Positions 1-10,004 of a stretch of 64,000 nucleotides of DNA are shown one piece after another (within the stretch, counting starts at the first letter, position 1; every line of letters starts with the position of its first letter). Under the pieces are notes generated by a model, which was given only the letters and a program-made list of their open reading frames with translations, ran no database searches and was not told the origin of the DNA. The position numbers and the translations under genes were made by a program. Source of the DNA: an uncultured Chloroflexia bacterium. Its GTDB lineage: Bacteria; Chloroflexota; Limnocylindria; QHBO01. The stretch is from positions 216,538-280,537 of the forward strand of contig CAVXEH010000014.1 in assembly GCA_963760875.1 (NCBI GenBank), written 5' to 3'.

Positions 1-2
1 TG

Positions 3-200
3 GAGCCACCCAATGGGAACGGCGAGGTTGGTGCGCACTCGTCGGTGTCGATCGGCGCCTTCCGGCCACACGCCGGCCGCTGGCTCCGCCAAGCGCGCCA
101 CGAGCCAGTGCTTCTGACCTGGTACGGCCGCCCGGTGGCGGTCCTGCGCGCTGCACCTTCGCGGGTGCGACTCATCGGCTTCGACGAAAGGGGTTCCGAC
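3..200 (+). CDS. Partial Phd/YefM-like antitoxin domain. The 5' end lies outside the window. The frame stays open to 548 (ORF 45..548), so the true 3' end is unclear.
   Basis: Frame-0 translation ...VSIGAFRPHAGRWLRQARHEPVLLTWYGRPVAVLRA... matches the Phd/YefM core (pvvItrrGkpvAVlvs). No stop until 548, overlapping the next gene in another frame. Confidence 0.35.
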
Positions 201-201
201 C

Positions 202-813
202 ATGACCATCGATCGGCCGCTGACCGAGATCGGCGTCCGCGAGCTGCGCGACCGGCTGCGAGCCGTTCTGGCCCGCGTCCTGGACGGCGAGCCGTACGTG
301 GTGCTCTCCAACAGCGCCCCGGTGGCGGTGATGCTGTCCAAGGGCGAGGCCGATCGCTGGGAGCGCATCGAGCGCGGGCTGGCCGCCCTCCACGGCCTCG
401 AGATCTACCCCGAGCTGGCGCGCGACACCTCGGAGCTGGCGCAACTGATGCGCCGGGAACGCACGCCTTCCGGGCGCGAGCTGGAGCGGCTGGCTCGGGC
501 GCCGCGCGACATCCTGGGCCTGCACCACCACGTCAAGGCCGTGAGTGACGTGCGGATGAACATGGCCGAGGTCCTCGACGAGGTGAGCCACGGCCGGCCC
601 TGGCTGATCGTGAGCTCGGGCCGCTACACCGCGGTCATGATTCGCCCCGCCGAGTACGACCGGCTGCTGCGCCTGCGGCGGACGGTGGCCTGGTTCCGGG
701 CGGCCGGCCTCGACCTGGCCACGGCCACCGACGACGAGGTCATCGCCTGGGCTCGTAGCTACACCGCCCAGCCGTCGGCCGCCGAGGCTGGCGAGGGGTC
801 GGCGATCGCCTGA
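202..813 (+). CDS. Protein with two tandem Phd/YefM (prevent-host-death) antitoxin-like domains.
   Basis: First domain: TEIGVRELRDRLRAVLARVLDGEPYVVLSNSAPVAVMLSKGEADRWE. Second domain: VSDVRMNMAEVLDEVSHGRPWLIVSSGRYTAVMIRPAEYDRLL. Both fit the YefM/Phd N-terminal fold signature. ATG at 202; stop at 811-813. Confidence 0.7.
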   Translation: MTIDRPLTEIGVRELRDRLRAVLARVLDGEPYVVLSNSAPVAVMLSKGEADRWERIERGLAALHGLEIYPELARDTSELAQLMRRERTPSGRELERLARAPRDILGLHHHVKAVSDVRMNMAEVLDEVSHGRPWLIVSSGRYTAVMIRPAEYDRLLRLRRTVAWFRAAGLDLATATDDEVIAWARSYTAQPSAAEAGEGSAIA

Positions 814-830
814 TCGCCTCTCGATCCGTC

Positions 831-3167
831 ATGGCCGTTCCGTTCCCCTTCCCTTTCGAACTCTTCTTCATCGCTCCCGCGCTGGTCGGCTGCATCGCCT
901 TGCTCATCTGGGCGGTTCCGCGCCTGGTTCGCGCCTGGCAGCAGCGCCGATACGACGCCACCGTCGTCACCGAGCAGGTCCGCTTCGAGATCGTGGCACC
1001 GGGACGGGCAGCGCGCGACGAGGATTCCGCCGTCGAGCTGATCCGCGCCATCGCTCCACAGCAGCGGCTGGGGGACGACCGAGGCGGCAAGGGCTGGCCC
1101 ACCTTCGAGCTGCGCGCCGAGTGGCGCGATGGCCAGCTGGTCTGGCAGTTCCAGGGCGGCCGCCAGATGGCGGTGCGCGCGCAGGGCGCCCTCGCCTCGC
1201 TGTACCCCGGGACCGAGATCGAACGCGTGGCGATCAAGGACAGACCGGCGGTCGCCAGCGCGGTGGGACGCTTGACCGCTCCGTCATCTTGGCAATTTGG
1301 CTCGCCCACGACTGCGGGCGGTGCGACGCTCAGCCGGCTGGCCACCCTGCTGGCCACCGAGGCCGACGAGGCCGACGTCCGGCTGCGGGTCGTCGTGCGA
1401 CCCATCGCGCCTGAGCGCTGGCATGGCTGGCTGTACCCCGAATCCAAGCGCGAGTCCTTCGGTGCGCTGGTCTTGGAGGCGATCCTCGACGAGGTCTTCC
1501 AGCGCCCGCACGGCTCGGCGAGGGCACAGCCCGTCGCCCTATCGGAGGACGAGCGCGAGGCGCGCAGACGGAAGCGCGCCGCGAAGATCGGCCTCGAGGT
1601 CGGCCTGCTGCTCGAGGCCGCCGGGACCGATGTCGCCAGTGCCCGGGCGCTTCTCCATCGGCTCACCGGCTTCACCGATCTGCTGAGTGACGGCCTGCAG
1701 GCCATCGACTGGCGCGTCCGCGACGGTGCCGTCACCCAGCCCTCGCGCTTCCCGCTGGGTGACTGGGAGCTGGCCCAGCTGTGGTACCTGCCCGATGCCG
1801 CCTTCGACCAGGCCGGCCTGCCCCGCCATCGACCCCTGGCTGCACCGCCGCCGAGGTCCGCCGGCAACGGTGCAGCCTTGACCATCGGGGAGTCGCGCGG
1901 TCAGCCGCTGCGCCTGCCGGCCAGCAACCTTGCGCAGCATATGGCGCTGGTAGGTGCCACCGGCTCGGGCAAGAGCACCCTGCTGCTGAACATCGCGCTG
2001 GGGGTCCTCGACACGCCCATCGGCGCGACCGTGATCGATCCGCACGGCGACCTGGCGTCCGACATCCTGTCGCGCGTCGAGCAGCGGCACGCCGAGCGTG
2101 TCCACGTCCTGCGCCTGGCGGATCGGTCCAATCCGCGCGGCTTCAACTTCCTCGAGCGCCGCGGACCCGACGACGCCCAACTGGTGACCAGCGAGTTCGT
2201 CGGGCTCTTCAGTGACCTGTGGCCCGACTACACCGGCCCCAAGATGCAGCACTACCTGCGCCATGCCCTGCTGACGTTGCTGTCCCACTCGAAGCCGCAG
2301 ACCATCCTCGAGCTCATCCGGCTGCTGACCGATGACGCCTTCCGTGAGCGCTACCTCCGCGTCGTCGACGACCCGATGCTCCTCAACTTCTGGCGCACCG
2401 AGTGGCCGTCCGGAGCCAACCGCGAGCGCGACACGTCCATCAAGGCGGTCCTCAACAAGCTCGGCGCCTTCGTCTCGTACCAGTCGGTGCGCCAGGTCGT
2501 TGGCCAGGGGACCTCGACGATTCGGCCGAGGCGGATCATGGACGACGGCGACCTGTTGGTGGTCGACCTCTCGCAGGTCGGGGCTGATAACGCCCGCCTG
2601 TTCGGCGCCATGCTCATCAGCCGCTACTACATCGACGCGGTGGGTCGGCAGGGGACCGCGCGCGAAACCCGTCGCCAGCACCTGCTGCTGGTCGACGAGG
2701 TCGGCTCCTTCGACACCCGGGCCCTGGTCCGGATCCACGACGAGGGCCGCAAGTTCGGCCTGGTGCTGGTCACCGCCGCGCAATCGCTCGCCTCGCTCGG
2801 GACGCGGCTGCGCGACTCGATCCTGACCAACGCCGGGGCGCTCGGTGTCCTATCGCCCGGTCCGGACGACGCGCAGTTGCTCCGTCGCCTGCTGGCGCCG
2901 CTGAGCGCCGATGACCTGCTCGGGCTGCGGCAGTTCGAGCTCCTGCTGCGCATGCGCGGCGCCTCCGGCGGATACGAGACCTACGGCGGGATGGTCTGTC
3001 CGCCACCGCCCGGCTCGCCCGCCGCGGCCGAGGCCGTCATCCTGGCCAGCGATGGGCGTGATGCCCGACCGGTCGACCAGGTGCGGGCCGAGGTCCATCG
3101 CCGCGCCGGCGGCGACGAGCCGCGTGTCGATGGCGGGGCGCAGCGGCCGGTGACCGATCAGAAGTGA
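831..3167 (+). CDS. VirD4/TraG/TraD-like type IV coupling protein ATPase (DUF87/TraM-recognition type) with an N-terminal TM segment.
   Basis: 778 aa. N-terminal hydrophobic helix. Walker A LVGATGSGKST; Walker B LLLVDEVGSF. This is the typical architecture of conjugative DNA-transfer coupling ATPases. Confidence 0.8.
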   Translation: MAVPFPFPFELFFIAPALVGCIALLIWAVPRLVRAWQQRRYDATVVTEQVRFEIVAPGRAARDEDSAVELIRAIAPQQRLGDDRGGKGWPTFELRAEWRDGQLVWQFQGGRQMAVRAQGALASLYPGTEIERVAIKDRPAVASAVGRLTAPSSWQFGSPTTAGGATLSRLATLLATEADEADVRLRVVVRPIAPERWHGWLYPESKRESFGALVLEAILDEVFQRPHGSARAQPVALSEDEREARRRKRAAKIGLEVGLLLEAAGTDVASARALLHRLTGFTDLLSDGLQAIDWRVRDGAVTQPSRFPLGDWELAQLWYLPDAAFDQAGLPRHRPLAAPPPRSAGNGAALTIGESRGQPLRLPASNLAQHMALVGATGSGKSTLLLNIALGVLDTPIGATVIDPHGDLASDILSRVEQRHAERVHVLRLADRSNPRGFNFLERRGPDDAQLVTSEFVGLFSDLWPDYTGPKMQHYLRHALLTLLSHSKPQTILELIRLLTDDAFRERYLRVVDDPMLLNFWRTEWPSGANRERDTSIKAVLNKLGAFVSYQSVRQVVGQGTSTIRPRRIMDDGDLLVVDLSQVGADNARLFGAMLISRYYIDAVGRQGTARETRRQHLLLVDEVGSFDTRALVRIHDEGRKFGLVLVTAAQSLASLGTRLRDSILTNAGALGVLSPGPDDAQLLRRLLAPLSADDLLGLRQFELLLRMRGASGGYETYGGMVCPPPPGSPAAAEAVILASDGRDARPVDQVRAEVHRRAGGDEPRVDGGAQRPVTDQK

Positions 3168-3260
3168 CGCCGAACTGTCGTGCGACTGTGCCTACCCACG
3201 TCAGTCCTGCGGCGGCGGCTCGTGCTCGAATCGCGCGACCGCGCGCGGGAACTCACGTAG

Positions 3261-4160
3261 ATGAGCGCCATGTTCCGCATCTCGCCCGAGCGAGCTCCTG
3301 CCCTGGTCGACATCGGCCTGCTGTTGGTGCGCGACCGTGCCGGCCTGCGCCTGCTGGACCGCTGCGAAACCCTCACCGCCGAACAGCTTGCCGTCATCGT
3401 CCATCCCACCCGTCGCACCGCGCTGCGTCGGCTGCGCCGCCTCTGGCGCCTGGGCCTGCTCGAGCGCGCGCCTCTACTGCCTGAACGAGGAGGGATCCCG
3501 ATGGCCTACCGCCTGTCGCGTCGTGGTCGCACCCGTCTGGGGGTGACCGATGCCCGCGTCCGCTCGGCTGCACATATCCGGCATGCGCTCGACACGGTCG
3601 ACGTCGTCTGCGCCCTGCTGGAGTGGTCGCGCCGGCAAGAGGACACGGAGGGTGCCGAGCCGCTGGTCCAGGCCTGGCTTCCGGAGTCCATGACCGCCGG
3701 CGTCGTGGCTCCTCGGCTGCGGCCGGACTCGATCCTGGCCCTGCAGGCCGGTCCGCTGTCTGCCGCTCTGTGCGTGGAGGTCGACGAGGCGACCGAGAAG
3801 GCGCCGGTCATCCGCGCCAAGCTCGCCGCCTACGACGCCGCGCTCGGTGGCCGCATCGGCTGGCACCTGCTGTGGGTCGTTCCCTCACGCGATCGCGTCG
3901 ACTGGCTCCGCCGCCTCACTGCCCACGATCCCCCGCGACGCCTCCGCGGGCGCTGCTGGGCGGTCGTCCTGCCGGAGCTGCGGCCGTTGGGCGCCTCCGC
4001 CGAGGCCATCCCGGTCGGCTGGGCGGGCGAGCCCCGCCGCCTGATTGCGGTCCTCGACGACCCGCGGTCGCGCCGATGCCCGACTCCCATCGGCACCGAA
4101 GCCTGGATCAACCTCCTCGCCACCGGCGGCGGCGAGGACCTCTCCGAGGCGCTGCGCTGA
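3261..4160 (+). CDS. Replication-relaxation family protein (Replic_Relax, wHTH).
   Basis: LTAEQLAVIVHPTRRTALRRLRRLWRLGLLER... is the pattern typical of PF13814 proteins from small actinobacterial plasmids and integrative elements. Confidence 0.7.
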   Translation: MSAMFRISPERAPALVDIGLLLVRDRAGLRLLDRCETLTAEQLAVIVHPTRRTALRRLRRLWRLGLLERAPLLPERGGIPMAYRLSRRGRTRLGVTDARVRSAAHIRHALDTVDVVCALLEWSRRQEDTEGAEPLVQAWLPESMTAGVVAPRLRPDSILALQAGPLSAALCVEVDEATEKAPVIRAKLAAYDAALGGRIGWHLLWVVPSRDRVDWLRRLTAHDPPRRLRGRCWAVVLPELRPLGASAEAIPVGWAGEPRRLIAVLDDPRSRRCPTPIGTEAWINLLATGGGEDLSEALR

Positions 4161-4405
4161 GGCGTCGCCGCCACCGCGTCGTTCACGACCGCCATGCCTG
4201 GCCGCCAGACTGTCCCGCGGACCCCTCGCAGACCGCCCCGTCAAGTGCCCCGTCACCGCGGGCGGCGCTCCAGGCGGTCGCCACACGCGCCACGGACCGC
4301 CCAGCGCCGGAACCAGTCACCTGCCGTCCGCCGAACGGCGAGAGCACCTCGGCGAGGGCGAGGCCGAGAGCCTGGTCAGGACCCGAATCGGATCATTCGA
4401 CTCCT

Positions 4406-4460
4406 GGCCGAATGGGTCGCGGAATAGTGCTGCAACGCAGCGCGGCGTACCATTCGGACC
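4406..4460. promoter_or_regulatory. Inverted repeat GGCCGAATGGG / CCATTCGGACC, about 32 bp apart, just upstream of the serine recombinase start. Additional CGAAT-containing half-sites flank it.
   Basis: ccgaatgg (4408-4415) is the exact reverse complement of ccattcgg (4450-4457). cgaatcgg/cattcga and cgcgaatc lie nearby. The recombinase start is at 4483. Confidence 0.3.
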
Positions 4461-4482
4461 AGAGACCGCGAATCTGACGACG

Positions 4483-5964
4483 ATGCAGAAACTCCTTCCC
4501 CGTTCACTCGACGACCTGCGAGGGTTGCGTGCCGCCCGCTGGCTACGCGAATCGACCGGCGAGCAGTTCGACCGGTATGGCCCTGACAGCCAGCGCGAGC
4601 AGATGGAGCGCTTCGCCCAGCGCTTCGCCCTGGTCGACACCGGCCTGGCCTGGGAGGTCCCGGCCTCGGGTCGGACGGTGTGGCGCCATCCCACCATGGC
4701 CGCCATGCTGGCCGCCGCCCGCGCCGGCAGATTCGACATCCTCCTCACCGGCTACGCCGATCGCTGGCAGCGCAACCTGCGCCGCTTCCTGGAACTCATC
4801 GAGGATGCCCTCCACCCTTCTGGCGTGGCTCTCGTCATGTGCGACCGGCGCCTGCTGTCCAGCGACCCCCATGACTGGGACGAGATGGTCCGCGAGGCGC
4901 ACGCTGCCGAGATCTACAGTCGCCGCCTCGGCGAACGGATCGCGGACGGCTACGAGGCCCGCTACCACCGCTATGCCGATCCAGCCGGCAACGCCCCGCT
5001 CGGGTTCCGCCGGCAACCTGAGCCACCCCACCTGCTCGAAATCGATCCCGACGCCATCGGTCAGATCGTGCAGCTATTCGACGCGTACGGCCGGGGCGAC
5101 GCCAGCTACGCGAACCTTGGACATCAGTTCGGGCTGGCGGAGGCGAGGGTACGCGAGATCCTGGGCAATCCGGTGTACAACGGCTGGGCTGTCCGTGGCA
5201 GTCGAGGGCGGCGACGGCCCGAGGAGCGCGTCCCTGCGCGGTGGCGGGACGACCCGCCGGTGGACGACGATCTCTGGGACCGCGTGATGGCAGTTCGTCG
5301 GCAGCACAGGCATGGCGGAGGCCCTCGCAGGCGCGAGCGCCTTGACCCACTCGCCGGAGTGGTGTTCTGCACCTGCGGGCGGTACGTGAAGGCCAACGGG
5401 CTTGATGGCGGCGGCCGCCATCAGCGGATCCACCTTGGGTCCTGTTCGGCATGGGACGGGCGCCGGACCTACCCGACCGACACTTGGTACCGCCCGATGC
5501 TGGCTCAGGTTGCTCAGATCCGGCTCGACGACGCGACCGTCGAGCGCGTGGTCCACGCTCTGGGGCGTCCGGCGTTGGAACATGACGAGCTGCGCCGGAA
5601 GCGCGTCGAAGCGCGGCGCCGGCAGCTGGCATCGGACTATGCGGCCGGCACCTTGAACGAGGCGGAGTTTCTAAACGCCGCGGCGACGGTCCGCGACGAA
5701 GGCGAGACAGCGCCACGGACTCGACGTGCAACAGATCCACGGTCCGCGGCACGTCGGCTGCGCGACTTCGCCAGCCTCTGGTCGTCCCGCTCGGAAGCCC
5801 AGCGGGCCGAGATGCTCCGCACGATCTACGCTCGCGTCGAGGTCGAGGGCGCGACATTCGTCCAGGCGCACCTGACGGCTGACGCGCAGGAGTTGGGGCT
5901 TACGCTCGCGCTGCCCGAGTCGTTTGCTATGGCGCGCCCGGCAGGAATCGAACCCGCGACCTGA
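4483..5964 (+). CDS. Large serine recombinase (site-specific integrase).
   Basis: N-terminal resolvase catalytic motif AARWLRESTGEQ (R-x-S-T-x-x-Q) and a long C-terminal domain typical of large serine recombinases. The ATG at 4483 follows a long leader that is open in the ORF track from 4045. The 3' end overlaps the tRNA 3' end. Confidence 0.85.
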   Translation: MQKLLPRSLDDLRGLRAARWLRESTGEQFDRYGPDSQREQMERFAQRFALVDTGLAWEVPASGRTVWRHPTMAAMLAAARAGRFDILLTGYADRWQRNLRRFLELIEDALHPSGVALVMCDRRLLSSDPHDWDEMVREAHAAEIYSRRLGERIADGYEARYHRYADPAGNAPLGFRRQPEPPHLLEIDPDAIGQIVQLFDAYGRGDASYANLGHQFGLAEARVREILGNPVYNGWAVRGSRGRRRPEERVPARWRDDPPVDDDLWDRVMAVRRQHRHGGGPRRRERLDPLAGVVFCTCGRYVKANGLDGGGRHQRIHLGSCSAWDGRRTYPTDTWYRPMLAQVAQIRLDDATVERVVHALGRPALEHDELRRKRVEARRRQLASDYAAGTLNEAEFLNAAATVRDEGETAPRTRRATDPRSAARRLRDFASLWSSRSEAQRAEMLRTIYARVEVEGATFVQAHLTADAQELGLTLALPESFAMARPAGIEPAT

Positions 5965-6005
5965 TGGTCCGAAGCCATCCGCTCTGTCCGCTGAGCTACG
6001 GGCGC
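5930..6005 (-). tRNA. tRNA-Arg, anticodon TCG by manual folding, CCA encoded.
   Basis: The reverse complement folds as a 76-nt cloverleaf: acceptor GCGCCCG/CGGGCGC, U8, D-stem GCTC/GAGC, anticodon stem GATGG/CCATC with loop CUUCGGA (U33, anticodon UCG), 5-nt variable loop, T-stem GCGGG/CCTGC with TTCGATT loop, discriminator G, CCA. Confidence 0.8.
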
Positions 6006-6060
6006 GCGCCTCACGCTCACAGCGAGCGGAAGACCAGGCGAGCCATTCTGCCACAGCGCC
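5965..6060. repeat. Repeat copy 1: tRNA positions 1-41 plus about 55 nt of promoter-side flank. This is part of the intact tRNA locus.
   Basis: tggtccgaagccatccgctctgtccgctgagctacgggcgcgcgcctcacgctcacagcgagcggaagacc... recurs at 7335 and 8540. Confidence 0.85.
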
Positions 6061-6119
6061 CGGAGAGCGGGATGGTCTGGGGGTCAGACCTAGCTCACAG
6101 ATCGGCCAGCGGGAAGGAA

Positions 6120-6210
6120 TTCGGTACGGTGAGTTTCTTGTGAGGTCACCGTACCGAAGCACGTGCTAAAATTCGGTACGGTCCAATTATCCGGGGAGGT
6201 ATGTACCGAA
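6120..6210. promoter_or_regulatory. Array of four TTCGGTACGG-type sites in alternating orientation (spacing about 26 nt) in the 5' region of the fic gene.
   Basis: TTCGGTACGGTGA (6120-6132); TCACCGTACCGAA (6147-6159), a perfect inverted repeat of site 1; TTCGGTACGGTCC (6172-6184); GTACCGAA (6203-6210). The region is locally AT-richer. Confidence 0.45.
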
Positions 6211-6228
6211 CTCGTGCCGATTGAGATG

Positions 6229-7503
6229 CCGCAGCGTGGCCGCCCAACGCGCCTCGCCATCTTCGACGGCGTCGATCGCGAGATCGAGGAGATGCGCCGC
6301 ATCGGCGGGCTGCCCGCACCGTTTGAGGCACGCGATATCTGGACGGGCATCTGGTACGAGGAGGCGCACAACTCTACCGCGATCGAGGGCAACACCCTGC
6401 TGCTCAAACAAGTCCGGGTCTTGCTCGATGAGGGACGTGCCGTGGGAAATGAAGAGCTCGCGCAGTATCTCGAGGTCCAGGGCTATGCAGAAGCCGCTGA
6501 ATGGGTATACGAGCAGGCAACAAAGGCGGTGGCCTCGGTACCCAGCGACCACATCACGCTGACCGAGCTGCGACAGATGCACCGAACCCTGGTCGAGGCG
6601 GTATGGAAGGTGAAGCCTCCTGAACAGCTCATCGCCGGGGAAGGGCCAGGGTCATTCCGCCTGCACGACATCGGCGCCTTTGCCGGCGGGATGAAGCCAC
6701 CACCATTCACCGACGTCCACGCGCTCATGAGCGACTGGATCCGGGACGCGAATGCGGCACCCCGCAGCGGACAGCACCTCATGGAGCACCTGGCTACCCT
6801 CCATGCTCGCTTCGAGCAGATCCATCCGTTCCGCGATGGGAATGGGCGTGCAGGTCGCCTCGCCCTCAACCTGCTCCTCGTGCGGCGAGGCTACGCGCCC
6901 GCCGTGATCTACAAGCGGGACCGCGCGAAGTACCTGGCCGCACTCCGCCGGTCGGATCGCGGTAACAGCGGGTCCCTCGCGGAGCTCGTTGCGCGCGCAG
7001 TCAAGGACGGGCTGGACCGCTTCCTGTTGCCGGCCCTCGCCGGCCCGCATCGGCTGCTGCCGTTGTCAGCGCTGGCCGAGCGGGACCTCAGCCCGCTGGC
7101 CCTGCGCAGAGCCGCGCAGGCGGGCCGACTCCGCGCGACTCACCAGAACGGTCGCTGGTACTCGACGAAGCGCGATGTCCTCGCCTACCGGCAAGCCGCC
7201 GTCGCGGCCGGCCGTCATCGAGAGCGCTTGACGGGCCCGCGCGCGGGAGGCTCCTACGAAGTGCAGACACAGCGGATAACTCGGCGCGAAATGGTCGGCG
7301 CTGCACGAGGGCCAGCACACCGCCGTCGGATCTCTGGTCCGAAGCCATCCGCTCTGTCCGCTGAGCTACGGGCGCGCGCCTCACGCTCAAAGCGAGCGGA
7401 AGACCGAACGGGACATTGTAGGCACAGCGCTTGGACAGCAGAATGGTCGGCCGGTCCGTCTTGCATACCGGCGTCGGGCGGGACACGCCAAGTGACAACT
7501 TGA
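6229..7503 (+). CDS. Fic family protein (Fic/DOC adenylyltransferase-type). The C-terminus reads through the repeat junction and is probably truncated or replaced.
   Basis: Canonical Fic motif HPFRDGNGRAGRLALNLLLVRRG. The ORF is open from 6163 (GTG), and ATG at 6229 or GTG at 6217 are likelier starts. There is no stop before the reading frame enters repeat copy 2 (7266-7430) and the tRNA-remnant sequence. It ends at 7503. Confidence 0.7.
   Translation, partial: PQRGRPTRLAIFDGVDREIEEMRRIGGLPAPFEARDIWTGIWYEEAHNSTAIEGNTLLLKQVRVLLDEGRAVGNEELAQYLEVQGYAEAAEWVYEQATKAVASVPSDHITLTELRQMHRTLVEAVWKVKPPEQLIAGEGPGSFRLHDIGAFAGGMKPPPFTDVHALMSDWIRDANAAPRSGQHLMEHLATLHARFEQIHPFRDGNGRAGRLALNLLLVRRGYAPAVIYKRDRAKYLAALRRSDRGNSGSLAELVARAVKDGLDRFLLPALAGPHRLLPLSALAERDLSPLALRRAAQAGRLRATHQNGRWYSTKRDVLAYRQAAVAAGRHRERLTGPRAGGSYEVQTQRITRREMVGAARGPAHRRRISGPKPSALSAELRARASRSKRAEDRTGHCRHSAWTAEWSAGPSCIPASGGTRQVTT
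7266..7430. repeat. Repeat copy 2: a 65-nt X segment, then a partial tRNA (positions 41-1, at 7335-7375), then about 55 nt of tRNA upstream flank.
   Basis: cagcggataactcggcgcgaaatggtcggcgctgcacgagggccagcacaccgccgtcggatctc followed by tggtccgaagccatccgctctgtccgctgagctacgggcgcgcgcctcacgctcaaagcgagcggaagacc. It is about 85% identical to copy 3 over about 160 nt. Confidence 0.85.
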
Positions 7504-7523
7504 CAACTTGTCAGATCGGCCCG

Positions 7524-7883
7524 ATGCTGGGCCTTATGAACGCCGTCCTTTACTCGAACGCCCGCAATGAGTTCGCCGACATCTTCGCTGCGGCGATTGC
7601 TCACGCGCCCACTCGCATCGCCCGACGCCGGTCCGGAGAGGCGGTCCTCATCGGGCGCGACGATCTGCTCGCGCTAACCGAGCCGTTCGCCTTCCACCCT
7701 GCCGTTTACTTCGAGCCGAGCACGGTGTCGGTGTGGCTTCCGGAGTTCGAGGTGTGGGGACGAGGCGCCGACTTCGAGTCAGCCAAGGAGGACTTGATCG
7801 ACGAAGTGCGGCAATACATCGAGGAATACCTGGCCGCTGAGCGCGTCCGCATGGCTCCCAATCACCGGCCACACGTTCCGTAG
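7524..7883 (+). CDS. Orphan Phd/YefM-like antitoxin-family protein.
   Basis: MLGLMNAVLYSNARNEFADIFAAAIAHAPTRIARRRSGEAVLIGRDDLLALTE fits the Phd/YefM N-terminal domain. Stop at 7881-7883. No recognisable toxin gene downstream. Confidence 0.55.
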   Translation: MLGLMNAVLYSNARNEFADIFAAAIAHAPTRIARRRSGEAVLIGRDDLLALTEPFAFHPAVYFEPSTVSVWLPEFEVWGRGADFESAKEDLIDEVRQYIEEYLAAERVRMAPNHRPHVP

Positions 7884-8470
7884 GTGAGCGTGCCATGTTG
7901 CTCGACGATGCGCAGCTCGCGAGCGCCATCTTCTCTGAGCCAAGTCACTCGCTCTGATTCACCTTGCCGACCTTCCGCGGGCTGACCGGACTACCCGAGA
8001 AGGACTGTTGGGAGGAGGTGCCGATCTTGCTCGGGCCGACGCCGGGTTGGCGACCACTGGCGCTACCGGAAGCCATGCCGATGGCACCGTCTTGCGCACC
8101 AAGGTGTCTCATACCTCGGTCGCCGACGACCCTGGATCGGGCCTGACCCGCTCAGCATTCGGCGCACAACTGCGCACCACGAAGACGGCCTGCCGCGACG
8201 TCATGACCGAACTGCGCGATCGCTCTCCGGAGCCGGCCACCCAGTCGACCGCTCGAGCCCATCCCGGACTGGCTCACATCAGGCTGATAGGCCGTTGGCC
8301 TGGCGGAGGATGGGTAGCGGAACGGAGTGTCGCCGGATGGCAGGCACGAGATCACGGCGCAGGCGCGTCTTCTATGCTCGGATCGCAGACGCGAACCGTC
8401 TGGATACCCGGGCAGTATCTGCGGCATCCGAAGCGTGCCGTACATTGGCACCCTGGCGCTGCAAGCCTGC

Positions 8471-8635
8471 GCGACAGCGGATAACTCGGCCCAAAATGGT
8501 CAATGCTCCACGAGGGTGAGCACACCGCAGCGGGGTCTCTGGTCCGAAGCCATCCGCTCTGTCCGCTGAGCTACGGGCGCGCGCTTCACGCTCACATCGA
8601 GCGGAAAACCAGACGAGGCATTCTGCCACACGGCT
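8471..8635. repeat. Repeat copy 3: X segment, then a partial tRNA (8540-8580), then upstream flank.
   Basis: cagcggataactcggcccaaaatggtcaatgctccacgagggtgagcacaccgcagcggggtctc then tggtccgaagccatccgctctgtccgctgagctacgggcgcgcgcttcacgctcacatcgagcggaaaacc...cattctgccaca. Confidence 0.85.
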
Positions 8636-8717
8636 CACGCAGCGATATGGTGGCCCGCTGTACTCAGCGGACACCTCACGCCGGAATCCGGCACGCGTTG
8701 TGCGCGTGGATATCGGC

Positions 8718-9086
8718 ATGAGGAAGCTACTTGCCGCCGGGGCCATCCTGGCCCTTCTGCTCACCGCCTGCAGCCGAGGAAACGGCGCCTTGCCCACCGG
8801 GCCGTCCATGTCGGAGTCCATCGGCTCCGCGGAGGCCATGACCTGCTCGGACGCCTTCACGGCGCTGTCGGCCATCACCGTCCAGAGCATCACCACCCTC
8901 GACAACGCTGGTGACAAGCTGGACGCCACCATCCAGCACTGCCCTTCCGTCTCGGAGTGGCGTGCCGGGCTGCAGGCCGTCCTCCCCAGCCTCGATGCCA
9001 GCAAAGCCGAGGAGTTCATCGCGCGGCGCTGCCAGGGCAATCCGGAGCTGACGACCGCGCTGCTGTGCCGTCAGGTCGGCTCCTGA
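8718..9086 (+). CDS. Small lipoprotein with four conserved Cys.
   Basis: Signal peptide plus lipobox LLTAC. The ORF is open from 8700. It is paralogous to the next gene (C..AF...S...CP..S.W....QAVLP..D.....F...RC). Confidence 0.6.
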   Translation: MRKLLAAGAILALLLTACSRGNGALPTGPSMSESIGSAEAMTCSDAFTALSAITVQSITTLDNAGDKLDATIQHCPSVSEWRAGLQAVLPSLDASKAEEFIARRCQGNPELTTALLCRQVGS

Positions 9087-9171
9087 AGGGACTGCCGCCA
9101 AGGACCGGGTCGGCATGGGTCTTGCGAGGAGGGGACGGCGATCAACGCAACCTTGCACTGAGGACCATTGC

Positions 9172-9564
9172 ATGCGAACCCTTCTCGCGGTGGGAGCGCT
9201 CCTGGCGCTCCTGCTCGCTGCCTGCAGCACCAACTCCGGCTCGAGCGCCTCGCCAACACCGACCGAGCCGATGATGGCGTCGCCCTCGATGGACTCCACG
9301 GCCTCACCCCTCGCGATGAGCTGCGACGAGGCGTTTGGCAGCATGTCGGCCTCGGACCTGACATCGATTCACAGCCTCGCCGACGCTCAGGGTCTGCTGG
9401 ACACCACCATTGCCGCCTGCCCAACCCCATCCGACTGGACGACGGCCGCCCAGGCCGTGCTCCCCACGGTCGACCTCAGCCAGGCCCAGGACTTCCTGCG
9501 GCAGCGATGCGCGGCCAACGACCAGCTGGCTGCAACCCAGATCTGCAGCGCGCTCACGTCATGA
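9172..9564 (+). CDS. Small lipoprotein, paralog of 8718..9086.
   Basis: MRTLLAVGALLALLLAAC lipobox. Conserved CDEAF...CPTPSDW...QAVLP...FLRQRC pattern. The ORF is open from 9115. Confidence 0.6.
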   Translation: MRTLLAVGALLALLLAACSTNSGSSASPTPTEPMMASPSMDSTASPLAMSCDEAFGSMSASDLTSIHSLADAQGLLDTTIAACPTPSDWTTAAQAVLPTVDLSQAQDFLRQRCAANDQLAATQICSALTS

Positions 9565-9575
9565 CGGATGCGGGG

Positions 9576-10004
9576 TTACCAGAGCGCGAGGCCGGTCCTC
9601 TCGTCGTGCTCCCGAACAAGGGAGACATCGGTGAGCTCGCGAAGCTCCACCTCGACCATCCAGACCACGGTGCCGCGACGGATATGGCCTGTGACGCCCG
9701 CACCGCTCGCGTCGCCAAAGCTCGCGTGAGCATGGAGCATGGGCCGGCCGTCACGGAGCGAGACGTTCCCCACGAAGCCGGCCATCTCATGATGCGTATC
9801 TGAGCGGAGCTCCTCGTAGCGCAGCGCCTCCTGGTTGTAGAACGCGTATTCGAGGTGCTGCACGGCTCCCACCGCGGTGACCCAGGCGGCGTCGACCTTC
9901 TGTTCGGTGCAGAACCGCTCGATCTCCTCCACGAGGTCGCTGTCGGTGGGGAGCCGGCCGACGAACGTGCGTCCGATGGTCGCGGGTCGCAATCCGGTGC
10001 TCAT
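9576..10004 (-). CDS. PPC/DUF296 (PCC) domain DNA-binding protein.
   Basis: LVEEIERFCTEQKVDAAWVTAVGAVQHLEYAFYN...GNVSLRDGRPMLHAHASFGD...GHIRRGTVVWMVEVEL matches the DUF296 core. Start refined to MSTGLRP. Confidence 0.6.
   Translation of the reverse strand: MSTGLRPATIGRTFVGRLPTDSDLVEEIERFCTEQKVDAAWVTAVGAVQHLEYAFYNQEALRYEELRSDTHHEMAGFVGNVSLRDGRPMLHAHASFGDASGAGVTGHIRRGTVVWMVEVELRELTDVSLVREHDERTGLALW

Follow-up and report, generated by a model that had tools for sequence, protein, structure and literature searches.

Xer-dependent dif modules are small units of cargo that are bounded by the sites of Xer-type recombinases and use the host XerCD proteins and plasmid dif-like sites. The Islander survey of genomic islands recorded a displaced 5' fragment of the tDNA in 159 of 3919 islands and tandems of three or more in 4 of the 3919, with candidates below 2 kb or without an integrase being dropped (PMC4383910). 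According to two reports, tRNA genes are not known as targets of serine integrases (PMC4383910; PMC7192596), the Dehalococcoides ssrA islands encode a serine recombinase, DsiB, whose tail is swapped (McMurdie 2011, PMC3146451), and the tycheposons of Prochlorococcus are tRNA-adjacent elements separated by partial tRNA copies, with degenerate remnants accumulating outward (Hackl et al., 10.1101/2020.12.28.424599). Here, we analyzed a stretch of 64,000 nucleotides (64 kb; hereafter the window) from an uncultured Chloroflexia bacterium (contig CAVXEH010000014.1), in which an intact tRNA-Arg(TCG) gene is accompanied by two displaced copies of its own 5' half. We consider it likely that this locus is a tRNA-anchored cassette array, with the tRNA gene being used from both of its sides and the cassettes being stacked by IntY, a Xer-like tyrosine recombinase of related genomes. 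In the following, a5 denotes the tRNA 5' half, U the upstream region and X the segment that precedes the displaced copies; L-numbers designate comparison loci and P-numbers comparison proteins.

The tRNA-Arg(TCG) gene and the displaced copies of its 5' half

ARAGORN predicted a single tRNA in the window, in agreement with Rfam and with an earlier note on this DNA that had been made from the sequence; from 5800 to 8800, Rfam matched nothing besides this tRNA-Arg(TCG). A 42-mer comprising tRNA nucleotides 41 to 1 plus one further base occurs three times without a mismatch (Table 1), where zero occurrences are expected by chance, and the repetition of the tRNA 5' segment described in the note is confirmed. 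The tRNA 3' part (5930-5964) has no second copy in the window. Identity of copy 1, which lies within the working tRNA, with copies 2 and 3 starts at the first base of the 42-mer and spans ~95-110 nt, including ~55-70 nt of similarity past the tRNA 5' end (U). Copy 1 departs from the other two within the anticodon stem, 3 nt after the start of its 3' strand, which places the break at the anticodon stem/loop as had been suggested. Copies 2 and 3 are 87% identical to each other across a 149-nt repeat that includes the 66-nt X before a5; the presence of this shared X had been recognized earlier, with a start that has to be moved by 3 nt to 7269 and 8474. Each tRNA 5' end is also preceded, at a distance of 9-23 nt, by the hairpin CGCTC-N5-GAGCG that the note had described. 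In U1, this hairpin reads CGCTC-ACAGC-GAGCG and is accompanied by a leftward extended -10-like TGnCAGAAT and a repeated motif of the GAGCGG type. Together, X, the tRNA 5' half and U form a repeat unit of ~170 nt. On the opposite strand of the tRNA (5932-6005), Rfam returned a weak match to the Plastid-ycf2 5'UTR (27.7 bits, under the gathering score), which is almost certainly an artefact of the antisense tRNA sequence.

The polarity of the units can be read from related genomes. The subtype of X goes with the cassette to its left, while the distal part of U goes with the cassette to its right; a cassette thus has the order a5-U-cargo-X. The outermost copies in L001/L059 and in L045 continue into non-U sequence, followed by the stop codon of a chromosomal gene for a PCC-domain protein, which argues for a crossover within tRNA nucleotides 1-41. 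A similar non-U copy is present in L021, and the outermost copy of L001 carries a 1-nt deletion. Most plausibly, the outermost copy in L001/L059 and L045 represents the original chromosomal 5' half, and every insertion would have brought a new 5' half together with its upstream region. The earlier note had proposed such a donation, and the different upstream sequence beside PCC in L001 and L045 speaks for it.

Unoccupied sites, for which the note had suggested a search in relatives, were found as well. A virgin site (L064/L065) consists of PCC, 620 nt and an intact tRNA with a TACAAT box 14 nt upstream, and has neither X nor U. A nearly empty site (L058) reads PCC, trimmed 5' half, X, ~100 nt, U, tRNA and a MetE-like gene, and this scar of ~230 bp holds no cargo; its PCC gene is 92% identical to that of the window. 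In this cargo-less unit (L058 3270-3550), the trimmed tRNA half reads GGTTCGGACC, and the locus is in effect a bare attachment site of ~230 bp in the closest relative of the window.

Table 1. Features of the tRNA-Arg(TCG) locus and its surroundings in the window.
Feature	Position	Strand	Basis	Remarks
Double Phd/YefM antitoxin	202-813	plus	Pfam, NCBIfam	
HerA/FtsK/TraD-like ATPase	831-3167	plus	Pfam, NCBIfam	
Replic_Relax protein	3261-4160	plus	Pfam, NCBIfam	
Large serine recombinase	4483-5964	plus	Pfam Resolvase PF00239 + Recombinase PF07508	493 aa
Intact tRNA-Arg(TCG)	5930-6005	minus	ARAGORN; Rfam tRNA, 66.9 bits	
a5 copy 1	5965-6006	minus	exact 42-mer	within working tRNA (nt 1-41 plus 1)
Cassette 1 (Fic-A)	5965-7334	plus	Pfam Fic	a5-U-Fic-X, 1370 bp
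U1	6007-6075	n/a	alignments	element-type upstream region; hairpin 6014-6028
Fic open reading frame	6226-7503	plus	Pfam Fic	
X2	7269-7334			right arm of cassette 1; alpha subtype, opening with conserved ACAGCGGATAACTCG
a5 copy 2	7335-7376	minus	exact 42-mer	displaced tRNA 5' half
Cassette 2 (PHD-like toxin-antitoxin)	7335-8539	plus	Pfam PHD_like	1205 bp, decayed
U2	7377-7447			hairpin 7384-7398
PHD_like antitoxin open reading frame	7431-7883	plus	Pfam	
X3	8474-8539			right arm of cassette 2
a5 copy 3	8540-8581	minus	exact 42-mer	outermost displaced 5' half of the window
U3	8582-8652			hairpin 8589-8603
Two paralogous lipoprotein genes	8700-9086, 9115-9564	plus	signal-peptide repeat D2	
PCC-domain gene	9576-10004	minus	Pfam PCC	chromosomal anchor beyond the array, then MacB/FtsX and ABC genes

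Variable cassette arrays and the candidate recombinase IntY

The comparison sequences are all metagenome assemblies. For a scan of a database with one genome per species, we used a pattern in which the X motif is linked to the anticodon loop; it retrieved 34 loci. Approximately 18 of these lie in metagenome-assembled genomes (MAGs) of Chloroflexota, listed as "Ca. Limnocylindria" or "uncultured Chloroflexia", and the remainder equals the chance expectation. Arrays of 2 to at least 5 unit copies occupy tRNA-Arg(TCG) in ~14 Chloroflexota ("Limnocylindria") MAGs: L001 and L008 show the tRNA with three copies each, L031 the tRNA with four partial copies, and at least five unit copies are present both in L035 and L010, which lie on one contig, and in L033 together with L036. 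A scan of viral contigs for the X/a5/U unit gave one hit, a chance match.

The 28 cassettes found between the units sort into 15 families. Most units measure 0.86-1.4 kb and hold one gene or one toxin-antitoxin pair, with no integrase. Their cargo comprises three kinds of Fic proteins, a PHD-like antitoxin with its partner, VapBC and extracytoplasmic function (ECF) sigma factors with Kelch or TolB-like partners, besides a cyclase, an amidase, an oxidoreductase, a kinase and peptidases. From one genome to another, the cassettes with Fic-A, Fic-B, the PHD toxin-antitoxin pair, VapBC and Fic-C show 98-99.7% identity, and they occur at different positions of the arrays. Fic-B, for example, takes the first place in L001, the second in L012 and the fourth in L031, and Fic-A comes first in the window, L031 and L033 and behind another unit in L035. 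L031 has both. The Fic proteins of the window and of L001 differ by 20% because they are different cassette alleles and not diverged orthologues. The variation of content and order between genomes rules out a fixed, invariant triple copy, the scenario that the earlier note had set against its own reading; together with the virgin and the nearly empty sites, it supports the sequential, site-specific integration into the tRNA gene that the note had proposed.

Which enzyme could have built these arrays? Most likely, it is IntY, as judged from its recurrent position. In L002, a 314-aa tyrosine recombinase with Phage_int_SAM and Phage_integrase domains starts 105 nt past the tRNA 5' end and is transcribed divergently from the tRNA. 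Its best matches are XerC and XerD, far below their cut-offs, and a score of 42.8 bits against TIGR02249 (cut-off 265) shows that it is not an integron integrase. Homologues of 57% to 95% identity have the same placement and the same hairpin (overall, 9 contexts from 8 homologues of 57-100% identity), with distances of ~105-151 nt from the 5' end of the tRNA or a5, mostly 105-111 nt and ~134 nt in L044. A divergent IntY stands beside a tRNA or a5 in L002, L043, L044, L045, L054, L056, L068 and L069, and a truncated IntY opens a unit at the same position in L035. The targets are an a5 unit of the tRNA-Arg(TCG) array (L043, L044), tRNA-Arg(TCG) itself (L045-47, L068, L069), a variant tRNA-Arg(TCG) (L056) and tRNA-Lys(CTT) (L054/L055).

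Complete IntY elements have the intact tRNA at one end and, at the other, a displaced 5' half behind an X-like arm. The element of L045 (2589 bp) consists of IntY and a Kelch protein and directly adjoins PCC, and that of L044 (6.8 kb) lies inside an array that continues with Fic and PHD cassettes. Two further elements are phage-like: that of L068 (8067 bp) includes a capsid gene, and that of L069 (7544 bp) encodes TerL and HNH proteins. For the IntY elements of L054 (tRNA-Lys) and L056, no displaced fragment was found within the 8 kb examined. Beside tRNA-Lys(CTT), in L054 (6817-7948) and L055, the IntY homologue is 63% identical and is accompanied by the same TTTCACGCTC-N5-GAGCG hairpin; thus, the hairpin belongs to the integrase module and not to one particular tRNA.

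These observations suggest the following model. A circular cassette would carry an attachment site of ~170-230 bp that consists of the X arm, the tRNA 5' half (nucleotides 1-41) and U, the latter with the conserved hairpin and promoter-like motifs in both directions. Recombination would occur within the tRNA 5' half, with the anticodon loop as its most likely site, and would place the cassette between the two tRNA halves, whereupon its own 5' half and upstream region would serve the working tRNA, and the former 5' half would be pushed outward to end up behind the X arm of the cassette. Repeated insertions would stack the cassettes with the newest one adjoining the tRNA, and recombination between internal sites would remove or reshuffle them. 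Some units carry the IntY gene immediately next to their a5-U arm; on the others, IntY would act in trans. The arrays may still be mobile today. In the window, the Fic cassette would have brought in a5 copy 1, and both this and the decayed PHD cassette would depend on IntY supplied in trans. The finding of the same cassette at different array positions points only indirectly to such a mobilization.

The two window units have conserved ends and encode neither a recombinase nor transfer genes, only Fic and a decayed PHD-type toxin-antitoxin pair, which agrees with the suggestion of the note that they are segments without an integrase, comparable to cis-mobilizable elements (CIMEs). Cassette 1 is 96% identical to the cassettes of L031, L033 and L035. 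A 1-nt deletion near 7193 abolishes the normal stop of its Fic gene, and the reading frame has therefore gained ~100 codons, which cover X2, U2 and the antisense tRNA half between them. Cassette 2 is 86% identical to intact cassettes of L001 and L036; its PHD-like gene has a nonsense codon (TGG to TAG at 7881), and tblastn found the remnant of the partner toxin (7964-8289) scattered over three frames.

Such decay could also point to a fixed relic, in which old duplications or decayed islands are inherited vertically and reshuffled solely by homologous recombination between the 170-nt repeats. The Fic frameshift, the PHD nonsense codon and the toxin pseudogene all fit this explanation, as do the lack of a recombinase for the cassettes in the window and sub-orders such as Fic-A, VapBC, Fic-C that are common to three MAGs; homologous recombination between the repeats could indeed delete or swap units. 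We nevertheless regard a relic as unlikely, since 15 unrelated cargo families have the same ends, a5 and the distal X motifs are conserved far above the adjacent sequence, and near-identical cassettes occur in genomes in which their neighbours differ. Moreover, intact IntY genes are kept at a constant position in many genomes, and complete elements with a displaced 5' half are found at two tRNA-Arg variants, with IntY also standing beside tRNA-Lys.

Several points weigh against the IntY-driven stacking that we favour. The window contains no IntY homologue (best tblastn E = 0.57), for which reason its cassettes are taken to be non-autonomous and decaying, and several arrays lack IntY in the stretch examined. 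Catalysis by IntY is proposed from its association with the units, and the protein has no recognizable arm-binding domain. A strict scan of 5900-8750 for sigma-70 promoters and terminators was uninformative, with 0 promoter sites; the promoter function of U is putative. No excised cassette circle was observed. A different, original upstream sequence at the outermost copy is found in the relatives only: in the window, the outermost copy is followed by a U-type upstream region and then by lipoprotein genes that are possibly native. Lastly, a 170-nt repeat could give rise to misjoins in short-read assemblies.

The conservation of the attachment site, computed over 23 distinct units, is sharply graded. 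The tRNA 5' half shows 92.5% identity and the first 16 nt of X (ACAGCGGATAACTCG) 90%, followed by 70% in proximal U, 68% in proximal X, 54% in the middle of X, 44% in distal U and 32% at the cargo end. Each unit has about three occurrences of a GAGCG(G/T)AAAAC-like motif: one opens X, another lies in the right hairpin arm, and a third stands close to a rightward promoter-like element (TTGACT-17-TAAAAC) before IntY. The motif changes in step between the element lineages, with L068 having GAGCGTAAAAC three times. These repeated motifs might be accessory binding sites of an attP of ~200 bp. The start of X (7269-7283 and 8474-8488 in the window) is about as conserved as the tRNA half in all related units; it forms an imperfect inverted match to the sense strand of the tRNA D-arm/anticodon-stem and resembles motifs of U (GAGCGGAAAAC). 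This match between distal X and the D-arm/anticodon-arm shows no covariation, and the known a5 variants are uncompensated.

We also considered that X/a5/U forms a structured RNA or an attC-like hairpin. RNAalifold on the 23 units gave a covariation of ~0 with no compensatory pairs, only one invariant long-range pairing appeared on the reverse strand, and there was no Rfam match, so that this candidate is not supported. The same results bear on the idea that the partial copies are working RNA genes, with U driving a regulatory RNA or decoy made of the tRNA 5' half and X, for instance antisense to the neighbouring cargo. Every copy has indeed kept what lies upstream of the real tRNA, transcripts running leftward would be antisense to the preceding cargo gene, and a5 and part of X are strongly conserved. 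With no structure supported by covariation on either strand, no Rfam match, a poorly conserved middle of X (54%), and neither the variable cassette order nor the association with IntY being explained, we hold this to be extremely improbable as an explanation of the array, although such transcripts would be compatible with an IntY-built array as a side effect. A further candidate, X being the remnant of an integrase C-terminal tail, arose because one frame of X reads QRITRREMVGAARG and some tails of the serine recombinases described below end in RIPIEGRDEWLAAARRSA. It was ruled out, as X has no DNA similarity to the tail-coding DNA of L040/L041 and its subtypes differ in frame.

The serine-recombinase element on the opposite side of the tRNA

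To the left of the array, the tRNA gene is adjoined by an element whose large serine recombinase is encoded at the element end next to the attachment site and terminates inside the tRNA. Its final 11 codons (MARPAGIEPAT) run antisense to the tRNA 3' part, just as the earlier note had described. Exactly the same protein (P0001) is encoded on two other contigs, L001 and L002, in addition to 444 homologues. Positions 1-5977 of the window are 100% identical to L001 and positions 1-6037 are 99.9% identical to L002, with the block of 100% identity ending between 5965 and 5977. To the right of the tRNA, L001 is only ~80% identical to the window (chromosomal flank) and L002 is unrelated. An element of such identity beside divergent or unrelated flanks indicates a very recent transfer between divergent hosts. 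Between L003 and L004, the contigs of L001 and L002, identity persists leftward of the tRNA over at least 15.8 kb. The earlier note had suggested looking leftward for a partial copy of the tRNA 3' part, which would mark the second attachment site; this displaced fragment is present neither in the window nor in 15.7 kb leftward in the sister contigs, in which the left end was not reached. The element is thus larger than 15.7 kb, and it is separate from the array. L008 contains the array as in L001 (99.9%) with a MetE-like gene in place of the serine-recombinase element and therefore represents an empty site for the latter.

Nearly all of the 444 homologues end in peptides that are antisense to a tRNA, e.g. 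ARPTGFEPATFGSGGRRSIH, and a minority end in the conserved tail RIPIEGRDEWLAAARRSA. Two recombinases with the alternative tail (L040, L041) lie in phage- or plasmid-like strings of genes, and what their DNA has in common is confined to the terminal 12-16 nt of the tRNA 3' end, within the MARPxG codons. From this, we infer that recombinases of this family act on the tRNA 3' end within their own reading frames and that integration swaps the protein tail, of which the last 20-25 residues seem to be replaced. In our model, integrative elements of two unrelated kinds exploit the one tRNA-Arg(TCG) gene, each from its own side, and the working tRNA is probably a chimera, with its 3' end being supplied or overlapped by the serine-recombinase element and the Fic cassette providing nucleotides 1-41. 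Up to 5977, the window is identical to both L001 and L002; the first difference from them is at 5978, which falls within the tRNA 5' half. This position belongs to an anticodon-stem pair, which is A28-U42 in the window and G28.U42 in L001 and L002, and the chimeric tRNAs differ here because their 5' halves stem from different cassettes.

The note had pointed to the integrase module adjoining the tRNA. This module is indeed present on the other side of the gene; as the enzyme behind the array, its serine recombinase is very probably not responsible. If it were, the cassettes would be satellites using the same crossover. No other recombinase is encoded near the array in the window, the coding sequence of this one ends at precisely the point at which the identity of the copies breaks, and relatives of it adjoin the same tRNA in L012, L031 and L033. 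Against this stands the finding that its unintegrated relatives L040 and L041 have no similarity to X and nothing beyond the 12-16 nt of the tRNA 3' end in common. Arrays also exist with no serine recombinase beside the tRNA (L008, L045-47, L058), a family member at tRNA-Arg(CCG) shows no 5'-half repeats across the gene, and the element is 100% identical between genomes whose arrays differ.

The identical block contains, 4.4-8 kb to the left of the window start (L003 3058-6649), a second resolvase-family gene (512 aa) together with Transposase_mut. This protein is a 35% paralogue of the first one without a tRNA-like tail, and the left element may be composite. Its gene set (Table 1) resembles that of integrative conjugative elements of the actinomycete type.

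On the other flank, the chromosomal PCC gene recurs in L001, L045, L058 and L059. The two lipoprotein genes between array and PCC are 73% identical in their signal-peptide regions; in L061/L062, their homologues run convergently towards PCC, and in L036 they come after the last a5-U. They are either a native flank or an old fixed cassette.

Comparison with known integrative systems

If our model is true, tRNA-targeting integrases can sustain an open-ended cassette array and not merely one or two islands. The locus would then be a concrete case of elements that replace the promoter and the 5' half of an essential tRNA gene, a rare mirror of the usual 3'-fragment strategy, and of recombinases from unrelated families rebuilding a single tRNA gene, each from its own end. 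The locus would open a view onto the flux of toxin-antitoxin pairs, Fic proteins and sigma/anti-sigma pairs in a poorly known soil lineage, and the defined recombinase with its site of ~200 bp would be a candidate tool for genome engineering. A further-reading interpretation, to which we give somewhat less than even weight, sees a tRNA-anchored functional analogue of the integron in an uncultured class of Chloroflexota: a cassette-borne Xer-like recombinase would capture and reshuffle single-gene cassettes at the anticodon loop of tRNA-Arg(TCG), the cassettes would carry the 5' half and a two-way promoter, and the GAGCG(G/T)AAAAC motifs repeated in X and U would, by accessory binding, set directionality. 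The newest cassette would then re-promote the essential tRNA and express its own cargo, and the re-promotion would render the site self-stabilizing.

Islands of the Islander/TIGER type, whose tyrosine integrases cross over at the anticodon loop, share many features with the locus. In both, the intact tRNA at one end is matched at the opposite end by a tRNA fragment in direct repeat (the window fragments at 7335 and 8540 have the same orientation), the identity block begins at the anticodon stem-loop, and tandems arise by re-use of the regenerated site. The likeness extends to unoccupied targets in related genomes (L064/L065, with L058 being a scar only) and, in the relatives, to a tyrosine recombinase gene next to the attachment site (L002, L044, L045, L068, L069; ~105-134 nt from a5). 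In contrast, the two units of the window have no tyrosine integrase, the fragment is the 5' half with a new upstream region, and arrays reach at least 5 units. Duplication of the 5' half, which the earlier note had called unusual, is indeed uncommon, yet it is not without precedent given the 159 islands among 3919 (PMC4383910). With 0.86-1.4 kb and no integrase, most cassette units escape Islander; if the model is correct, they are too small and too integrase-poor for current island finders, with their 2-kb minimum and integrase filter.

The left element is most similar to the Dehalococcoides islands, as both belong to Chloroflexota and in both the 3' end of a large serine recombinase gene runs antisense into a t(m)RNA gene at the attachment site; the recombinase tail would be swapped likewise. 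The DsiB islands also form tandems that include members without an integrase (PMC3146451). Different from them, the left element targets a tRNA 3' end and not ssrA, no small partner recombinase was seen, it has a HerA/FtsK-like ATPase and Replic_Relax, and it lies on the gene side opposite to the cassette array. Tycheposons differ from the cassettes in being larger and in having their own integrase and replication genes. The dif modules are likewise small cargo units with Xer-type sites, and differ in that no tRNA gene is involved.

The array itself also has parallels to accretion arrays and integrons. CIMEs in accretion arrays of ICEs/IMEs of the Streptococcus ICESt1/3 type (reviewed in PMC5704250) are units bounded by attachment sites that lack recombination and transfer genes and share one target with the autonomous relatives beside which they stand in tandem; here, by contrast, the non-autonomous units far outnumber the autonomous ones, are cassette-sized with varied cargo, are reshuffled among genomes and target a tRNA 5' half. 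With integrons, the array has in common that small cassettes stand in an order, that most of them hold a single gene and many a toxin-antitoxin pair, and that every cassette ends in a conserved recombination site with a variable middle. A tyrosine-type recombinase, an insertion that is probably confined to one privileged end, and the same cassette at varying positions are further likenesses. The differences touch what defines an integron: IntY is not of the IntI type and sits inside an a5-U...X unit instead of outside the array, no attC-like fold is supported, the anchor is a tRNA gene, and each cassette brings its own upstream region. Taken together, the array resembles CIME accretion and, in several respects, an integron, but with IntY it departs from the definition of the latter.

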